DNA of 59,453 nt from Bacilli bacterium (GTDB taxonomy: Bacteria > Bacillota_I > Bacilli_A > RFN20 > CAG-826), in the NCBI GenBank assembly GCA_024695235.1, contig JAILIP010000013.1:1-59453 (forward strand), given 5' to 3'. Made by a program: the position numbers and the translations under genes. Numbering within the stretch: position 1 is the first letter of the stretch; each line of letters begins with the position of its first letter. Of the stretch, positions 7,240-48,367 are shown piece by piece. The notes beneath the pieces are model-generated. The model was given only the letters and a program-made list of their open reading frames with translations. It had not been told where the DNA came from and did no database searches.

Positions 7240-7386
7240 ATGAGAAAGAAAGTAATTTTAATTTGCCCTGAATGCCTGTCAAGAAACTACACGACAAGCA
7301 AGAAGGAAGAAGATACATCTCGCTTAGAGATAAAGAAGTATTGCCCTCATTGCAATAAAATGACATTGCATAAAGAGAGCAAGTAG
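7240..7386 (+). CDS. rpmG: 50S ribosomal protein L33, Zn-binding C+ form (absent from the ORF track)
   Basis: [21 protein letters not shown]...[21 protein letters not shown], 48 aa; upstream of secE. Confidence 0.95.
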
Positions 7387-7396
7387 GAGGTAGCGT

Positions 7397-7654
7397 ATGG
7401 GAGCAAAGAAATACGTTAAAGAAGTTATAAAAGAAGGCAAAAGAGTTCGTTGGCCGAAAAAGGAACGTTTCTTTCCAGTTTTTATTTCAGTTTTAATCAT
7501 CTGTGTTGTCACAGCTTTAATCCTCATGCTTGAAGACTTAGCAGCTGGTACACTTAGAGATCGTTTAACAGAATTGTTCCAAAGCGGATCATCCTCCTCA
7601 GGCGAGGAAACTTCCTCAGCTCTAGCGGTTATCAAATCATTGATTAGGAGATAA
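7397..7654 (+). CDS. secE: Preprotein translocase SecE
   Basis: E.KRVRWP motif plus one TM; SD AGGAGG; between rpmG and nusG. Confidence 0.9.
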   Translation: MGAKKYVKEVIKEGKRVRWPKKERFFPVFISVLIICVVTALILMLEDLAAGTLRDRLTELFQSGSSSSGEETSSALAVIKSLIRR

Positions 7655-41785: not shown

Positions 41786-44700
41786 ATGGAAATTAAAAAA
41801 TCATTCCTCTCGGTTGATGGTAATACTGCCGCTGCTATTGGTAGCTATTATTTTACTGAAGTAGCTGGTATTTATCCTATTACCCCATCCTCCCCAATGG
41901 CTGAATTAGTTGATGTCTATGCCTCCCAAGGTAAGAAAAACTTATTTGGCACCCCTGTTAAAGTTGTTGAAATGCAATCTGAAGCTGGCGCATCTGGTAC
42001 AGTCCATGGTGCTCTTCAAGCTGGTGCACTTGCTACAACATATACAGCATCACAAGGTTTACTCTTAATGATTCCAAACCTCTATAAGTGGTGTGGTGAA
42101 CTTCTTCCAGCAGTTTTACATGTCTCTGCAAGAAGCTTAGCAACACGTTCCTTATCAATCTTTGGTGATCATCAAGATATTTATGCTTGCCGTCAAACAG
42201 GCGCAACAATGTTATGCGCTCACTCCGTTCAAGAAATCGCAGATCTTGCTCCAATTGCTCACTTAATCGCAATCGAATCAAGCACACCTGTCTTACACTT
42301 CTTTGATGGATTTAGAACTTCTCACGAAATTCAAAATGTCGAGTTCCTTGATGAAGAAGTTTATCGCAAACTCCTTCCAATGGATAAGGTTGAAGAATTT
42401 AGAGCACGCGCTTTAAACCCACACACTCACGCCGTTACACGTGGTGGTGCTGAAAACGATGACGTTTACTTCCAAGGTCGTGAAGCTCAAAACGAGCACT
42501 ATAACAACGTTATAGCAATTACAGAAAAATACTTAAAGAAAGTAAGCAAACTCACAGGACGTAACTATGCTCCATTCACCTACTATGGTGATCCAAAGGC
42601 TAAATTCGTTATCGTTGCTATGGGTTCAATTACTGAAACAACAATTGAAGTTATCGATCAACTTGCAAAAGAAGGTCGTTCAGTTGGTCTTGTTAAGGTT
42701 CACTTATATCGTCCGTTCTCTGCAGCTCATTTATCCAAAGCTCTTCCAAGAAGCGCCAAACGCGTCGCTGTCTTAGATAGAACAAAAGAAATGGGTGCTG
42801 CTGGTGAACCACTCTACCTCGATGTCGTTGCCGCTTTAAAACAAGTTGGTAGAAAGAACGTCGAAGTCTATGGTGGACGTTATGGTCTATCTAGCAAAGA
42901 CACACAACCAAAACATGTTAAATCAGTCTATGACTTCCTTGAAGGAAAGCCATTCCATAACTTCACAGTTGGAATTAACGATGATATCACACATTTATCA
43001 ATCCCAGTTGATGAATCATTCCATATTAAAGGTGATTACACATCCTGCTTATTCTACGGTTTAGGTAGTGATGGTACAGTCTCCGCTAATAAATCATCAA
43101 TTAAGATCATTGGTGATGCTACACATCAATATGCTCAAGCATACTTCCAATATGACTCAAGAAAAGCTGGTGGTGTCACTCGTTCACACTTAAGATTTGG
43201 TCATTCACCAATCCGTTCTACATATTATGTAGAGAACGCTGACTTCATCTCCTGCTCACTTGATACATACGTTCTTAAATTCGATATGATTAAGAACTTA
43301 AAACAAGGTGGAACATTCCTCCTCAATACCGATATGAGCGATGAGCAACTTGTTAAAGCTCTTCCAAATCGTGTTAAACATCAAATGGCTGAAAAGAAGA
43401 TTAAATTCTATGTCATCGATGCTAACAAGATTGCTGCTGAAATCGGTATGGGAAGACACACAAATACAATTCTTCAAGCTTCATTCTTCTATCTTAACCA
43501 AGGTATTATGCCTTACTCTGAAGCAAATGAATGGATGAAGAAATTTGCTAAGAAGACATATGCTAAGAAGGGTGAAGAAGTCGTCCAACTTAACTACAAA
43601 GCTATCGATGCCGGTACAGAAGGTCTCCGTGAAGTTAAAGTTGATCCAAAATGGATTGAACTTCCAGCAACACGTGTCCGCGAAATGACTGGCGATGAAT
43701 ACTTTGATTCATATGTTAACGTCATGGGTACACTTGATGGTGATACTCTCCCAGTTAGCAAATTCAAAGAATTTGAACTCCTTGATGGTACTATGAATAA
43801 CGACGTTACATTTATGGAAAAACGTTCTATTGCAGACCGTGTTCCATTATGGAATAGCGCCGATTGTATCCAATGTAATAACTGTGCATTCGTTTGCCCA
43901 CACGCAACAATTAGACCGTTCTTACTTAATGATGAAGAACTTGCAAAAGCTCCTGAAATCGTTAAGAAAGATGTTCTTCCAGCAATGGGTGTTGCAGGAC
44001 ATAAATACCGCTTACAAATTTCTCCAAAGAACTGTGTCGGCTGTGGCCTCTGTGTCAGTGAATGTAATGCTAACAAGATTGGTAAGAAAGCCCTCACCAT
44101 GGTTGAAGCCAAATCACAATTCGATCAAGAAGAAGGCGCTGATTACTTATTCAAACACGTTTCCTATAAAGCCGATAAACTTCCAGCTGCACTTCAAAAC
44201 TCAGTTAAAGGCGTTGGCTTCTTAATGCCATATATGGAAATCTCCGGAGCATGTGCTGGTTGTGGTGAAACTCCATACTATCGCTTAGCTTCACAATTAT
44301 TTGGTAAAGACATGCTTGTTGCGAATGCAACAGGATGTTCATCAATCTATTCAGGTAGTACACCTCTTACCCCATTCTGCACAGATAAGAATGGTGAAGG
44401 TATTGCCTGGGCTAACTCCTTATTCGAAGATAACGCTGAATTTGGTTTTGGTATGAGAGCAGCCACAAACTATCGCTTAGCTCAAATCGTTTCAATTCTT
44501 GAACCGGCCTTATCTCGTAGAGGTGTTTCAAAAGATCTTAAAGCTGCTATTCGTCAATATCTTGCAAACATCAAGAATAAAGAAGAAGCACGCAAGATTA
44601 TTCCAGAACTCGTTAAGCTCGTTAAAGAAAGCAAAGATAAACAAGTCAAAGCTGTCTTAGCTTACGAAAGAGACTTACTTGATAAGTCTGTATGGATTAT

Positions 44701-45331
44701 CGGTGGTGACGGATGGAGCTACGATATTGGTTACGGTGGTCTTGATCATGTTCTTGCTAACGATGAAGACGTTAATGTCATGGTCTTAGATACCGAAGTC
44801 TACTCCAATACCGGTGGTCAATCATCTAAATCATCACAAACAGGTAGTATTGCCAAGTTTACAGCTTCTGGTAAGACTGGTGAAAAGAAGAACCTTGCCC
44901 TTATCGCTATGAGCTATGGACATGTCTATGTTGCTCAAATCAGCTTAGGTGCAAATCCTGCTAAAGCCATTCAAGCCATGAAAGAAGCTGAAAGCTATAA
45001 TGGACCATCACTCATCATTTGCTACGCACCATGTGCCAACCACGGTATTAAAGGTGGCTTATCAAATGCTATGAAAGTCGAGAAGAAAGCCGTTGATTGC
45101 GGTTACTTCACATGCTTCCGTTATGATCCACGTAATCTTGCTGAAGGTAAACCAGCTCTTACACTCGACTGCAAAGAGCCAGACTTCTCCAAATTCCGTG
45201 AATTCGTCATGGGTGAAACAAGATTCTCACAACTTCCAGTTGTCAACCCAGCTCACGCTGAAGAACTCCTTCAAAAGAGTGAACGTTGCGCTAAGGAACG
45301 TTGGGAAAGAATCAAAAAATTCGGTTTATAA
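41786..45331 (+). CDS. nifJ: Pyruvate:ferredoxin (flavodoxin) oxidoreductase
   Basis: YPITPS, two CxxCxxC ferredoxin motifs, GACAGCGE, GGDGW.YDIG, EVYSNTGGQ. Confidence 0.97.
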   Translation: MEIKKSFLSVDGNTAAAIGSYYFTEVAGIYPITPSSPMAELVDVYASQGKKNLFGTPVKVVEMQSEAGASGTVHGALQAGALATTYTASQGLLLMIPNLYKWCGELLPAVLHVSARSLATRSLSIFGDHQDIYACRQTGATMLCAHSVQEIADLAPIAHLIAIESSTPVLHFFDGFRTSHEIQNVEFLDEEVYRKLLPMDKVEEFRARALNPHTHAVTRGGAENDDVYFQGREAQNEHYNNVIAITEKYLKKVSKLTGRNYAPFTYYGDPKAKFVIVAMGSITETTIEVIDQLAKEGRSVGLVKVHLYRPFSAAHLSKALPRSAKRVAVLDRTKEMGAAGEPLYLDVVAALKQVGRKNVEVYGGRYGLSSKDTQPKHVKSVYDFLEGKPFHNFTVGINDDITHLSIPVDESFHIKGDYTSCLFYGLGSDGTVSANKSSIKIIGDATHQYAQAYFQYDSRKAGGVTRSHLRFGHSPIRSTYYVENADFISCSLDTYVLKFDMIKNLKQGGTFLLNTDMSDEQLVKALPNRVKHQMAEKKIKFYVIDANKIAAEIGMGRHTNTILQASFFYLNQGIMPYSEANEWMKKFAKKTYAKKGEEVVQLNYKAIDAGTEGLREVKVDPKWIELPATRVREMTGDEYFDSYVNVMGTLDGDTLPVSKFKEFELLDGTMNNDVTFMEKRSIADRVPLWNSADCIQCNNCAFVCPHATIRPFLLNDEELAKAPEIVKKDVLPAMGVAGHKYRLQISPKNCVGCGLCVSECNANKIGKKALTMVEAKSQFDQEEGADYLFKHVSYKADKLPAALQNSVKGVGFLMPYMEISGACAGCGETPYYRLASQLFGKDMLVANATGCSSIYSGSTPLTPFCTDKNGEGIAWANSLFEDNAEFGFGMRAATNYRLAQIVSILEPALSRRGVSKDLKAAIRQYLANIKNKEEARKIIPELVKLVKESKDKQVKAVLAYERDLLDKSVWIIGGDGWSYDIGYGGLDHVLANDEDVNVMVLDTEVYSNTGGQSSKSSQTGSIAKFTASGKTGEKKNLALIAMSYGHVYVAQISLGANPAKAIQAMKEAESYNGPSLIICYAPCANHGIKGGLSNAMKVEKKAVDCGYFTCFRYDPRNLAEGKPALTLDCKEPDFSKFREFVMGETRFSQLPVVNPAHAEELLQKSERCAKERWERIKKFGL

Positions 45332-45344
45332 TCTGAATTAAAAT

Positions 45345-45375
45345 AAAGGCTCTGGGTCAATTCCTAGAGCTTTTT
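45345..45375. terminator. Likely bidirectional terminator (nifJ / tRNA-Pro)
   Basis: A-rich flank, GCTCTGGG..CCTAGAGC stem, T5. Confidence 0.7.
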
Positions 45376-45384
45376 GTATACAAA

Positions 45385-45461
45385 TGGTCGGGACAAAGGG
45401 ATTTGAACCCTTGACCTCTTCCTCCCTAAGGAAGCGCGATACCAAGCTACGCTATGTCCCG
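45385..45461 (-). tRNA. tRNA-Pro(AGG), A34 anticodon
   Basis: Reverse complement folds as CGGGACA/TGTCCCG acceptor, CTTCC-TTAGGGA-GGAAG anticodon arm, AAGGG-TTCAAAT-CCCTT T arm, A73, CCA; 77 nt. Confidence 0.93.
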
Positions 45462-45470
45462 AATGCATAT

Positions 45471-45479
45471 ATTGTAGCA
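45471..45479 (-). promoter_or_regulatory. Extended -10 promoter for tRNA-Pro
   Basis: TGcTACAAT on the minus strand, 9 nt before the tRNA 5' end. Confidence 0.55.
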
Positions 45480-45532: not shown

Positions 45533-48367
45533 ATGGAAAACAAATCAATAATAGTTAAAGGCGCAAAAGAAAATAACCTTAAAAATATCGATGTGACAAT
45601 TCCTAAGTACGCATTGACTGTTTTTACAGGTCTTTCTGGATGTGGTAAAACCACTTTAGCGTTTGACACTATTTTCGCTGAAGGACAAAGAAGATTCGTA
45701 GAATCACTTTCTAGTTATGCTCGTCAATTCCTTGGTGGAATGGAAAAGCCTAACGTTGAATCTATTGAAGGTCTTTCTCCTGCAATTAGTATTGATCAAA
45801 AGACAACATCTCATAACCCACGTTCCACAGTTGGAACCGTTACTGAGATATATGATTACCTTCGTCTACTATATACCCATATAGGTGTCCCATATTGTCC
45901 TAAACATGGTGATCCAATTGTGGCATTTTCTCCATCTAAGATGGCAGATATCGCAATGGAATATCCTGAAGGCACAAAGCTACATATCCTTTCTCCAGTA
46001 GTGAGAAATGAAAAAGGCACTCAAAAAGATGAGTTATTCCATATTAAACAACAAGGTTTTGAACGTGTTCGCATTGATGGAGAAATATATCGCATTGATG
46101 AAGCACCTCAACTAGATAAAAATAAACGTCATAACGTTGATATCGTTGTAGATAGAATCGTTGTTAAAGACGGAGTGAAAAATAGAATATCTGAAGACTG
46201 TGAACTTGCTTGCAATCATTCACGTGGATATTGTGTTTTCTTAACCGACAAAGAAGAAAGACTTTTCTCTGAACATCATTCATGTCCAAAGTGTGGTTTT
46301 TCTGTTCCTAAACTTGAACCACGTTTCTTCTCATTTAATGCTCCTTTAGGATGCTGCCCAGATTGCCATGGTATTGGTATTAAAAGAGAAGCAGCTAGAG
46401 ACTTACTTGTTCCTGATGATTCTTTATCAATCAATCAAGGTGCAATTAGATGGTTTAAAAACATCGTTGGTTCTAAGAATATTGAATGGCAAGAATTTGA
46501 CTATCTTTGTAAGCAATACAAAATTGATATGAATAAGCCATTCAGAGAATTAACCGATAAAGAAAAAGACATTGTCTTTATTGGTTCAGACAAGCCATTC
46601 AGTTATGAAATCACATCTGTAAATGGAAATGTGATGCATAGGAATGGTTATATTGAAGGCATCAAGACTAGAATTGATCGCCTTTATGGAGACACTAATA
46701 GTGAAATGATGAGGGGCATATATGAATTTTATATGCGTGATAGTGAATGTACGACATGTCACGGTTCTAGACTTAACGAAGCAGCCTTATCAGTTAAAGT
46801 TAATGGTCTAAATATTTATGAAGCCACATGTTTATCCATTGAAGAACTTCAAAAATGGATTGAAGATACAAGAAGTAAACTTACTCCAACACAATTAGAA
46901 ATCACTAGACTCATTGTTAAAGAAATATCTTCAAGAGTTAAGTTCCTTGTGGATGTTGGATTAAACTATCTAACTCTTTCGCGTATGGCTATGACCCTTA
47001 GTGGTGGAGAATCACAACGTATTAGATTAGCCACTCAAATTGGAAGCAATCTTTCAGGTATTTTATATGTTCTTGATGAACCAAGCATTGGCTTACATCA
47101 AAAGGATAACGATAAACTTATTGGCACCTTAAAAGAAATGGTGGAACTTGGAAACACACTTATTGTTGTTGAACACGATGAAGACACAATGAGAGCGGCT
47201 GATTATCTTGTAGATATCGGTCCAGGTGCTGGTGTCCATGGTGGTGAAATTGTCGCCACTGGTTCAGTTAAAGATTTAGAAAATGAACCACGTTCAATTA
47301 CTGGTCAATACCTTTCAGGGAAGAAGAAAATTGAAGTTCCGCCTGAAAGAAGAAAAGGTAACGGAAAAAGCATCACAATCAAGGGCGCAGAGAAAAACAA
47401 TCTTAAAAAGATTGATGTCTCAATTCCTTTAGGTACATTTACCGTTGTTAGTGGTGTCTCTGGAAGTGGGAAATCATCATTAGTTAATCAAACTTTATAT
47501 CCTGCTATCAAGAAACAATTGGGTTCTGAAGAGGATGATATTATTCCAGGAAAATATAAAGAAATGCTTGGCCTAGAAAACATCGATAAAGTTATCACAA
47601 TTGACCAAGATCCTATTGGAAGAACTCCAAGAAGTAACCCTGCTACATATGTAGGATTGTTTGATGAAATCCGCGCCGTATTTGCAGAAACAATAGATGC
47701 TAAAACTAGAGGATATGATAAAGGTAGATTCTCCTTTAACGTTCCAGGTGGAAGATGCGAAGCTTGCCAAGGTGCAGGTGTCATGTGCATTCCAATGAAC
47801 TTTCTACCAGATGTTTACGTTAAATGTGATCAATGTCATGGACATAGATATAACGAATCAACACTAGAAGTCACATACAAAGGCAAAAACATCTTTGAAG
47901 TTCTTGAGATGACAGTTGAAGAAGCACTTAAATTCTTTGAGGCACGTCCAAAACTCGCTAGAAAACTTCAAACCCTATACGATGTTGGTCTTGGCTACAT
48001 TAAGCTTGGCCAACAAGCCACAACTCTTTCTGGCGGTGAAGCTCAAAGAATTAAACTTGCCTATGAACTTCAAAAACGTCCAACAGGAAAAACTTTATTT
48101 ATATTAGATGAACCTACAACCGGTCTACACACCGATGACGTTAAACGTCTAATCACAGTTCTTCAAAGAATTGTTGATCACGGAGATACGGTTTTAGTTA
48201 TTGAACATAACTTAGATGTTATTAAAGTTGCTGATTATATTATTGATTTAGGCCCTGAAGGTGGTAATCGTGGTGGTCAAGTTATCGCTACTGGAACACC
48301 AGAGGAAGTCGCAAAGAATCCTAAGTCATATACTGGTCAATATTTAAAAAGGATTTTAAAGATATAG
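45533..48367 (+). CDS. uvrA: Excinuclease ABC subunit A
   Basis: Two Walker A motifs, LSGGE signatures, Zn fingers, GRTPRSNPATY. Confidence 0.98.
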   Translation: MENKSIIVKGAKENNLKNIDVTIPKYALTVFTGLSGCGKTTLAFDTIFAEGQRRFVESLSSYARQFLGGMEKPNVESIEGLSPAISIDQKTTSHNPRSTVGTVTEIYDYLRLLYTHIGVPYCPKHGDPIVAFSPSKMADIAMEYPEGTKLHILSPVVRNEKGTQKDELFHIKQQGFERVRIDGEIYRIDEAPQLDKNKRHNVDIVVDRIVVKDGVKNRISEDCELACNHSRGYCVFLTDKEERLFSEHHSCPKCGFSVPKLEPRFFSFNAPLGCCPDCHGIGIKREAARDLLVPDDSLSINQGAIRWFKNIVGSKNIEWQEFDYLCKQYKIDMNKPFRELTDKEKDIVFIGSDKPFSYEITSVNGNVMHRNGYIEGIKTRIDRLYGDTNSEMMRGIYEFYMRDSECTTCHGSRLNEAALSVKVNGLNIYEATCLSIEELQKWIEDTRSKLTPTQLEITRLIVKEISSRVKFLVDVGLNYLTLSRMAMTLSGGESQRIRLATQIGSNLSGILYVLDEPSIGLHQKDNDKLIGTLKEMVELGNTLIVVEHDEDTMRAADYLVDIGPGAGVHGGEIVATGSVKDLENEPRSITGQYLSGKKKIEVPPERRKGNGKSITIKGAEKNNLKKIDVSIPLGTFTVVSGVSGSGKSSLVNQTLYPAIKKQLGSEEDDIIPGKYKEMLGLENIDKVITIDQDPIGRTPRSNPATYVGLFDEIRAVFAETIDAKTRGYDKGRFSFNVPGGRCEACQGAGVMCIPMNFLPDVYVKCDQCHGHRYNESTLEVTYKGKNIFEVLEMTVEEALKFFEARPKLARKLQTLYDVGLGYIKLGQQATTLSGGEAQRIKLAYELQKRPTGKTLFILDEPTTGLHTDDVKRLITVLQRIVDHGDTVLVIEHNLDVIKVADYIIDLGPEGGNRGGQVIATGTPEEVAKNPKSYTGQYLKRILKI

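Follow-up and report, generated by a model that had tools for sequence, protein, structure and literature searches.

To our knowledge, bacteria are usually described as using adenosine at anticodon position 34 (A34) only in tRNA-Arg(ACG). The nearest known case to the gene described below is the laboratory-made proL mutant of Salmonella enterica (GGG to AGG; Chen et al. 2002, as cited), the same isoacceptor with the same G34A exchange and no GGG tRNA left, in which only position 34 was changed; its A34 is unmodified, CCC and CCU are read efficiently, and CCC is read about as in the wild type (PMC6103715, PMC3711424). An AGG anticodon has also been placed in a bacterial cell with TadA, in the form of an orthogonal M. 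jannaschii tRNA in E. coli, where no inosine was found and CCU and CCC were read at 56:44 (PMC11066159). That tRNA differs from the one studied here in its archaeal tRNA-Tyr body, its Arg2-type loop (C32, A37) and its amino acid, and the deaminase was that of E. coli rather than that of the present lineage. On orthogonal tRNAs with the Arg2-type loop, E. coli TadA edited ACG fully, AUG by about half and AAG by about 15%, and A37G abolished the editing of AAG (PMC11066159).

The nearest natural cases, the non-Arg A34 tRNAs of Bacillota and Mollicutes, are extra tRNAs of four-codon boxes in low-GC Gram-positives, as is the gene described here. They belong to other codon boxes and include the unmodified tRNA-Thr(AGU) of Mycoplasma capricolum and the tRNA-Leu(AAG) of Oenococcus oeni and Streptococcus pyogenes, which carries inosine (I34); the edited cases have A35, whereas the tRNA-Pro studied here has G35. 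Most bacterial non-Arg A34 tRNAs are apparently not converted to inosine (PMC8879553). In eukaryotes, tRNA-Pro(IGG) is made by ADAT2/3 from the same genomic AGG anticodon, with the same exclusion of a GGG gene; ADAT2/3 is a heterodimer with loose sequence needs, whereas the only TadA gene found here is of the homodimer type. In a full-text literature search, no paper was found that deals with how a natural bacterial tRNA-Pro(AGG) is modified; such genes may already be listed in the surveys of Rafels-Ybern et al. (2018/2019), and the A34 genes of GtRNAdb plotted in the supplements of PMC13249217 may be relevant to how widely Pro-AGG is known. The gene described here is a natural example of A34 in the Pro box that spans several species. 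Compared with the Salmonella mutant, the gene is natural, fixed across species and accompanied by A38, A9 and U22.

Structure and setting of the tRNA-Pro(AGG) gene

The window, that is, the whole stretch of 59,453 nucleotides analysed here, is contig JAILIP010000013.1 of the Bacilli bacterium assembly GCA_024695235.1. ARAGORN reported two tRNAs in it, one of which is tRNA-Pro(agg), and Rfam RF00005 matched this gene at 45388-45461 on the minus strand with 64.3 bits (E 1.8e-12; gathering score 29). The coordinates of the gene and its surroundings are collected in Table 1.

Table 1. The tRNA-Pro(AGG) gene and neighbouring features in the window.
Feature	Position	Strand	Evidence or remark
tRNA-Pro(AGG) gene, encoded CCA, 77 nt	45385..45461	-	ARAGORN, Rfam RF00005, covariation
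Anticodon A34 (45427), G35 (45426), G36 (45425)	45425..45427	-	sequence
Extended -10-like TGcTACAAT, putative promoter	45471..45479	-	sequence; 9 nt 5' of mature 5' end
Hairpin and U-run downstream of the tRNA	45340..45370	-	MFE fold, hairpin then CUUUAUUUU
nifJ (pyruvate:ferredoxin oxidoreductase), locus-marking flank	41786..45331	+	TIGR02176, 1578.9 bits
uvrA, divergent from the tRNA, locus-marking flank	45533..48367	+	NF001503, 1465 bits

The acceptor stem (CGGGACA/UGUCCCG, with C1-G72 and A73), the anticodon stem (CUUCC/GGAAG), a variable loop of 5 bases and the T loop UUCAAAU are all present, with a U13-U22 mismatch in the D arm, and the anticodon loop reads U32 U33 A34 G35 G36 G37 A38 (UUAGGGA), in which G37 following G36 is the context for m1G37 formation by TrmD. 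The identity set of bacterial ProRS consists of G35, G36, A73 and G72; all four are found in this tRNA and are invariant across the 13 A34 or G34 tRNAs of the genus. The complete cloverleaf with Pro identity features, loop and encoded CCA that the first-pass annotation had read from the letters was therefore recovered by ARAGORN, Rfam and the sequence itself, as was the placement of A34 at 45427. The tRNA-Pro(AGG) gene is real, intact and conserved.

The gene had further been credited with its own extended -10 element and terminator. Both elements are visible, and a TGnTAnnAT motif stands at the same 9-nt distance in all 13 A34 or G34 loci of the genus, while a hairpin with a T-run was seen by eye downstream in most related loci; however, a two-hexamer consensus scan reported no promoter and a strict terminator scan no terminator for tRNA-Pro(AGG). 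Lying as it does in the gap that separates the tRNA from the stop codon of nifJ, the hairpin may be a terminator shared by both genes. Strand bias in the window is extreme, with 44 of the 45 non-overlapping ORFs of at least 100 aa on the plus strand, so that the description of the tRNA as the only minus-strand gene was nearly right; the single minus-strand ORF of this set is at 7324-7635 (104 aa).

The assembly (G000; 994 kb, 33 contigs, 36% G+C, 69.6% complete) was also scanned as a whole with ARAGORN, which gave 44 tRNAs. The Pro set of this four-codon box comprises CGG, UGG and AGG, and Pro-GGG was not found by ARAGORN in this 69.6% complete assembly; the Arg set comprises ACG, UCG, CCU and two UCU tRNAs, with no CCG. 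A 101-nt 'tRNA-Ile(aat)' call (G000:C16:15735-15835) lies inside an ORF of 320 aa and has no Rfam match at E<=1. It was rejected as a false positive, leaving Arg-ACG and Pro-AGG as the only A34 tRNAs seen in the genome, in line with the tRNA inventory that the first-pass annotation had proposed as a check.

Distribution within the genus

A specific pattern spanning D loop and anticodon was used to search 37 species genomes of the genus. The AGG pattern was found in nine of them (G000, G012, G014, G018, G019, G024, G041, G051 and G052) and the GGG pattern in four (G007, G011, G015 and G044); no genome matched both, so that GGG is absent by this pattern from every AGG genome, and 24 matched neither. 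All nine AGG tRNAs carry the loop UUAGGGA. GGG or UGG in close relatives had been named in advance as speaking against the call: eight other species share AGG, and four of the 37 have GGG at the same locus.

The surroundings of the two kinds of gene are alike. In 13 of 13 A34 or G34 loci the tRNA lies upstream of uvrA on the opposite strand, and a tblastn search placed nifJ on the other side in eight of the 13, namely four of the nine AGG loci (G000, G014, G012 and G024) and all four GGG loci; no nifJ was found within the examined flanks of the remaining five AGG loci. In the 19 neither-pattern genomes whose uvrA locus was examined, no tRNA stands upstream of uvrA. The nifJ-uvrA spacers of 10 of these 19 loci (97-205 bp) show no similarity to the tRNA, which rules out a decayed tRNA remnant there and is compatible with gain as well as with loss of the gene at this locus.

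For 32 of the 37 genomes, a UvrA tree was built with a quick IQ-TREE run (LG+G4, midpoint root), leaving out G002, G013, G023 and G049 (no usable match), the fragments of G016 and the second uvrA copy of G012. Eight AGG species together with G003 form one clade (SH-aLRT 100), and the four GGG species form a separate one (SH-aLRT 99). No tRNA is present at the locus of G003, a 97% complete genome nested in the AGG clade. The ninth carrier, G012, with 5% contamination and two uvrA copies, groups with G046, apart from the AGG clade; this placement could be due to mixing in the bin, to transfer or to AGG having arisen a second time. The two copies of G012 (on C6 and C159) are partial and differ from one another, and it is the AGG-linked copy that falls outside the main AGG clade.

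Occurrence in other bacteria

A stricter pattern covering the D loop, the AGG loop and the T loop was run on one genome per species, with the window genus's own records left out, and returned at least 121 AGG loci. By record title, the 80 loci listed belong mostly to gut Lachnospiraceae, Anaerotignum, Eubacterium, Erysipelotrichaceae or Solobacterium, with some Succinatimonas or Succinivibrio and single MAGs of other phyla. Cultured carriers among the loci listed are Anaerotignum lactatifermentans, A. propionicum, Clostridium sp. ASF356 (a complete genome), Diplocloster agilis, Fusibacillus kribbianus, Succinatimonas hippei and Schleiferilactobacillus shenzhenensis. ARAGORN called 87 Pro-AGG genes on the 80 listed loci; the anticodon loop is UUAGGGA in 86 of them and UUAGGGU in the remaining one.

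From the window's phylum, 401 genomes were drawn evenly; all were of one class and 0.6-3.4 Mb in size. A pattern allowing either purine at position 34 matched 32 of the 401, once each: 28 are GGG, all with U38, and four are AGG, all with A38. The AGG genes of the draw come from three genera of the window's family, and A38 is found in two AGG genes of genera other than that of the window. Bacterial Pro-AGG is thus uncommon but recurrent, occurs without GGG beside it and is coupled to A38. Of the first-pass description as rare in bacteria, the uncommonness stands; with at least 121 loci elsewhere and no fewer than three genera of the window's family involved, the gene is recurrent. Since AGG recurs in many gut Bacillota, it is not an oddity of one lineage.

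The repeated appearance of tRNA-Pro(AGG) in gut bacteria offers a natural series, cultured strains included, in which to ask how freely the wobble purine of tRNA-Pro can switch, and whether A34 stays unmodified or TadA is recruited, the proposed first step of the eukaryotic inosine expansion. For genome annotation, it means that AGG anticodons should not be dismissed as errors.

Two tandem Pro-AGG copies were observed in several Anaerotignum or Lachnospiraceae genomes (L111, L144, L147, L148, L155, L164, L180 and G449), and three copies in A. lactatifermentans; in these multi-copy genomes Pro-AGG looks like a major isoacceptor and not an auxiliary one. Identical or near-identical Pro-AGG genes of the family were also met under the titles E. 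coli, Faecalibacterium, Sodaliphilus and Coriobacteriaceae (L106, L113, L125, L127, L165 and L174). Such titles cannot all be right and were therefore not used for taxonomy.

Proline codon usage and the proposed role of the tRNA

Codons of G000 were counted in 714 long ORFs (286,015 codons, 9164 of them Pro). CCA accounts for 5669 (62%) and CCU for 2943 (32%) of the Pro codons, followed by CCG with 462 (5%) and CCC with 90 (1.0%), confirming the earlier impression by eye that CCA and CCU dominate and CCC is rare. The C-ending codons of the other four-codon boxes in this genome reach 10-24%, and the 10- to 20-fold stronger avoidance of CCC relative to them was observed genus-wide, whatever the tRNA-Pro state. 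CGG is likewise almost unused in G000 (9 of 9956 Arg codons), which resembles the early reduction of the Arg box in Mollicutes as described in part of PMC3711424. The avoidance of CCC and CGG is genus-wide and typical of low-GC small genomes.

Samples of 9-20 kb from each of 20 of the 37 genomes gave CCC at 25 of 1376 Pro codons in AGG genomes, 14 of 649 in GGG genomes, 10 of 1315 in neither-pattern genomes and 1 of 219 in G003. Codon usage in the genus is independent of the tRNA state. A higher CCU share in the presence of the tRNA, as seen in the first samples (34.7% with AGG, 29.0% with GGG, 26.9% with none and 17.4% in G003), was rejected on more sequence, in which G003 uses CCU at 206 of 694 Pro codons (29.7%) against 28-35% in its sisters. 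Because codon usage does not track the tRNA, the counts show no selective benefit of A34 for CCU. The suggestion of a rewired decoding system in this lineage could not be upheld, given that the avoidance of CCC and CGG is shared across the genus irrespective of the tRNA, that 24 of 37 genomes match neither pattern and that TadA is ordinary (see below).

Rarity of CCC is not a general precondition for AGG either. In 40 kb from each of five named carriers, the CCC share is 4% in ASF356, 11% in S. hippei, 26% in A. lactatifermentans, 29% in S. shenzhenensis and 32% in D. agilis, and no GGG gene was found in these five by pattern, which is not a full tRNA scan. Carriers with 26-32% CCC and no GGG gene by pattern imply that AGG tRNAs must cope with CCC somewhere.

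Judged from these sequences and by analogy with the published tRNA-Pro mutants, the gene probably encodes an auxiliary but expressed and functional tRNA-Pro with unmodified A34 that stands in place of the GGG isoacceptor. In this scheme, A34 would stay adenosine, reading CCU by Watson-Crick A:U pairing and the few CCC codons through the A:C wobble documented for tRNA-Pro. As tRNA-Pro(UGG) would cover CCA and CCG and could back up the whole Pro box, the AGG tRNA would be auxiliary, a role also suggested by the 24 of 37 genomes that match neither pattern and by the loss in G003. The place of GGG is indicated by the locus that the two genes share on the uvrA side, and partly on the nifJ side, together with their failure to co-occur. 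If A34 and G34 are about equally good in tRNA-Pro, the purine could switch at little cost, which would account for the recurrence of AGG in many bacteria. A38 in place of the U38 of GGG-type tRNAs would most simply reflect a retuned 32-38 pair or inheritance from UGG-type genes. The first-pass annotation had put forward two mechanisms, an edited and an unmodified A34; both stay candidates, with the unmodified one favoured. Among sequencing runs searched for the locus, none of RNA was found to contain it.

TadA and the possibility of inosine

The main alternative is that A34 is deaminated to inosine by the lineage's own TadA, giving a tRNA-Pro(IGG) that, like its eukaryotic counterpart, would decode CCU, CCC and CCA. 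This is possible but, on the whole, unlikely. The enzyme itself is available: examination of tadA, one of the checks foreseen in advance, located the gene at G000:C22:22772-23251 downstream of serS, encoding a canonical protein of 160 aa (PF14437, 144.9 bits) that matches the solved S. aureus and B. subtilis enzymes at E 1e-39 and contains the H-A-E and P-C-x-x-C motifs, and a TadA was detected in 36 of 37 genomes of the genus. Bacterial TadA has also widened its specificity before, to Leu-AAG. The described loop motifs are YUACGAA in E. coli and Klebsiella and the widened YUAMGRA in S. pyogenes (PMC11472039). UUAGGGA matches the relaxed motif at six of seven positions, departing only at position 35, and its A38 (in all nine genus AGG tRNAs and 86 of the 87 from the 80 loci listed, against U38 in 28 of 28 GGG genes) fits the consensus Y-U-A-N-G-R-A. 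G37 would not stand in the way, as m1G37 occurs together with I34 in a tRNA-Arg of Barnesiella viscericola (PMC6297222), and a TadA that tolerates G35 could evolve, since the enzyme contacts C35 through a single hydrogen bond (PMC11472039). I34 would, in addition, explain how the carriers with 26-32% CCC manage with no GGG gene by pattern.

Against this, G35 fits neither motif and lies outside all bacterial TadA specificities described in the parts of the literature examined; G37 is also off the strict motif, and positions 32, 35 and 37 set the loop apart from that of the same genome's tRNA-Arg(ACG), CUACGAA. E. coli TadA produced no inosine on AGG even within an Arg2-type loop, as noted above, and the part of PMC8266599 consulted reports bacterial I34 only for Arg-ACG and Leu-AAG. 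Nor do the TadA sequences follow the tRNA. Among 34 aligned genus TadAs, no alignment position tells the AGG clade apart from the other sequences, and the most divergent proteins are those of two AGG carriers, G012 and G041. A LGTTFNLY..NHYPEV motif is clade-wide but also present in G003, G013 and G023, in which no AGG tRNA was detected, and absent from the carriers G012 and G041. Co-evolution of TadA with AGG was rejected on these grounds. A38, moreover, is shared by the genome's Pro-UGG and Pro-CGG tRNAs, so that no explanation by TadA is needed for it. A TadA of widened specificity, as previously proposed, therefore has nothing pointing to it, in view of the canonical enzyme, the lack of an AGG-specific column and the published non-editing of AGG (PMC11066159); editing as such keeps the low but real probability given above.

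That the TadA of this gut lineage, and perhaps that of the Lachnospiraceae and Anaerotignum carriers, accepts G35 and makes IGG from tRNA-Pro(AGG) is a rather doubtful proposition. If true, wobble inosine would have expanded in bacteria a third, independent time, here for the first time into the Pro box, and I34 would be known for the first time from a bacterial tRNA of neither the Arg nor the Leu box; the near-universal A38 would be a recognition signature, and cultured bacteria would be at hand to test the first steps of a eukaryote-type I34 expansion.

Most genus genomes, AGG carriers or not, contain another deaminase of about 157-170 aa that shares 41-48% identity with TadA (for example G006:C10:115258-115614 and G050:C2:212053-212409); the incomplete G000 showed none. 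Given that solved guanine deaminases are matched by TadA itself at E 1e-21, this protein may be a paralogue of the guanine deaminase type.

Decay, sequence error and the origin of the gene

A silent or decaying copy, in which a GGG gene mutated from G to A and is on its way to being lost because tRNA-Pro(UGG) suffices, would agree with the 24 genomes that match neither pattern, with the loss in G003 inside the AGG clade, with a codon usage that ignores the tRNA and with a gene oriented against 44 of 45 ORFs. However, A34 is kept in nine species whose tRNAs are 86-94% identical to that of G000. In the 13 genus tRNAs (8 distinct), 95.2% of stem cells are paired and six pairs have changed on both sides, a covariation score reached by none of 500 shuffles, and the anticodon arm is invariant, with the CCA and the -10-like element retained. 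A decaying gene would not be expected to keep such features, and we regard this explanation as very improbable for the tRNA-Pro(AGG) gene.

An error of sequencing or assembly, or a strain polymorphism of a GGG gene, might be suspected from the four genus species with GGG at the same locus, but can be set aside as practically negligible, given AGG in eight other species-level genomes, DNA contigs of two other studies that span the gene with no change at 45425-45427 among the differences listed, and further differences between AGG and GGG tRNAs beyond the anticodon; the base check asked of the anticodon thus came out in favour of A34.

These further differences bear on the origin of the gene. 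Within the genus, AGG tRNAs have A9, U22 and A38 where GGG tRNAs have G, G and U; all three are the states of Pro-UGG tRNAs, while the anticodon stem and T arm are GGG-like. With position 34 excluded, the AGG gene shares on average 82.5% identity with GGG genes and 80.4% with UGG genes, and its highest identity, 94.7%, is to a UGG gene. By sequence comparison, the AGG gene is a mosaic of GGG-like and UGG-like states. In another genus of the same family, the AGG gene at G330:C25:8683-8708 is the same as the Pro-UGG gene of G000 (G000:C16:61461-61537) from the D loop to position 38, except for U34 to A; a U34-to-A change in a UGG gene is thus probably another route by which AGG genes can arise.
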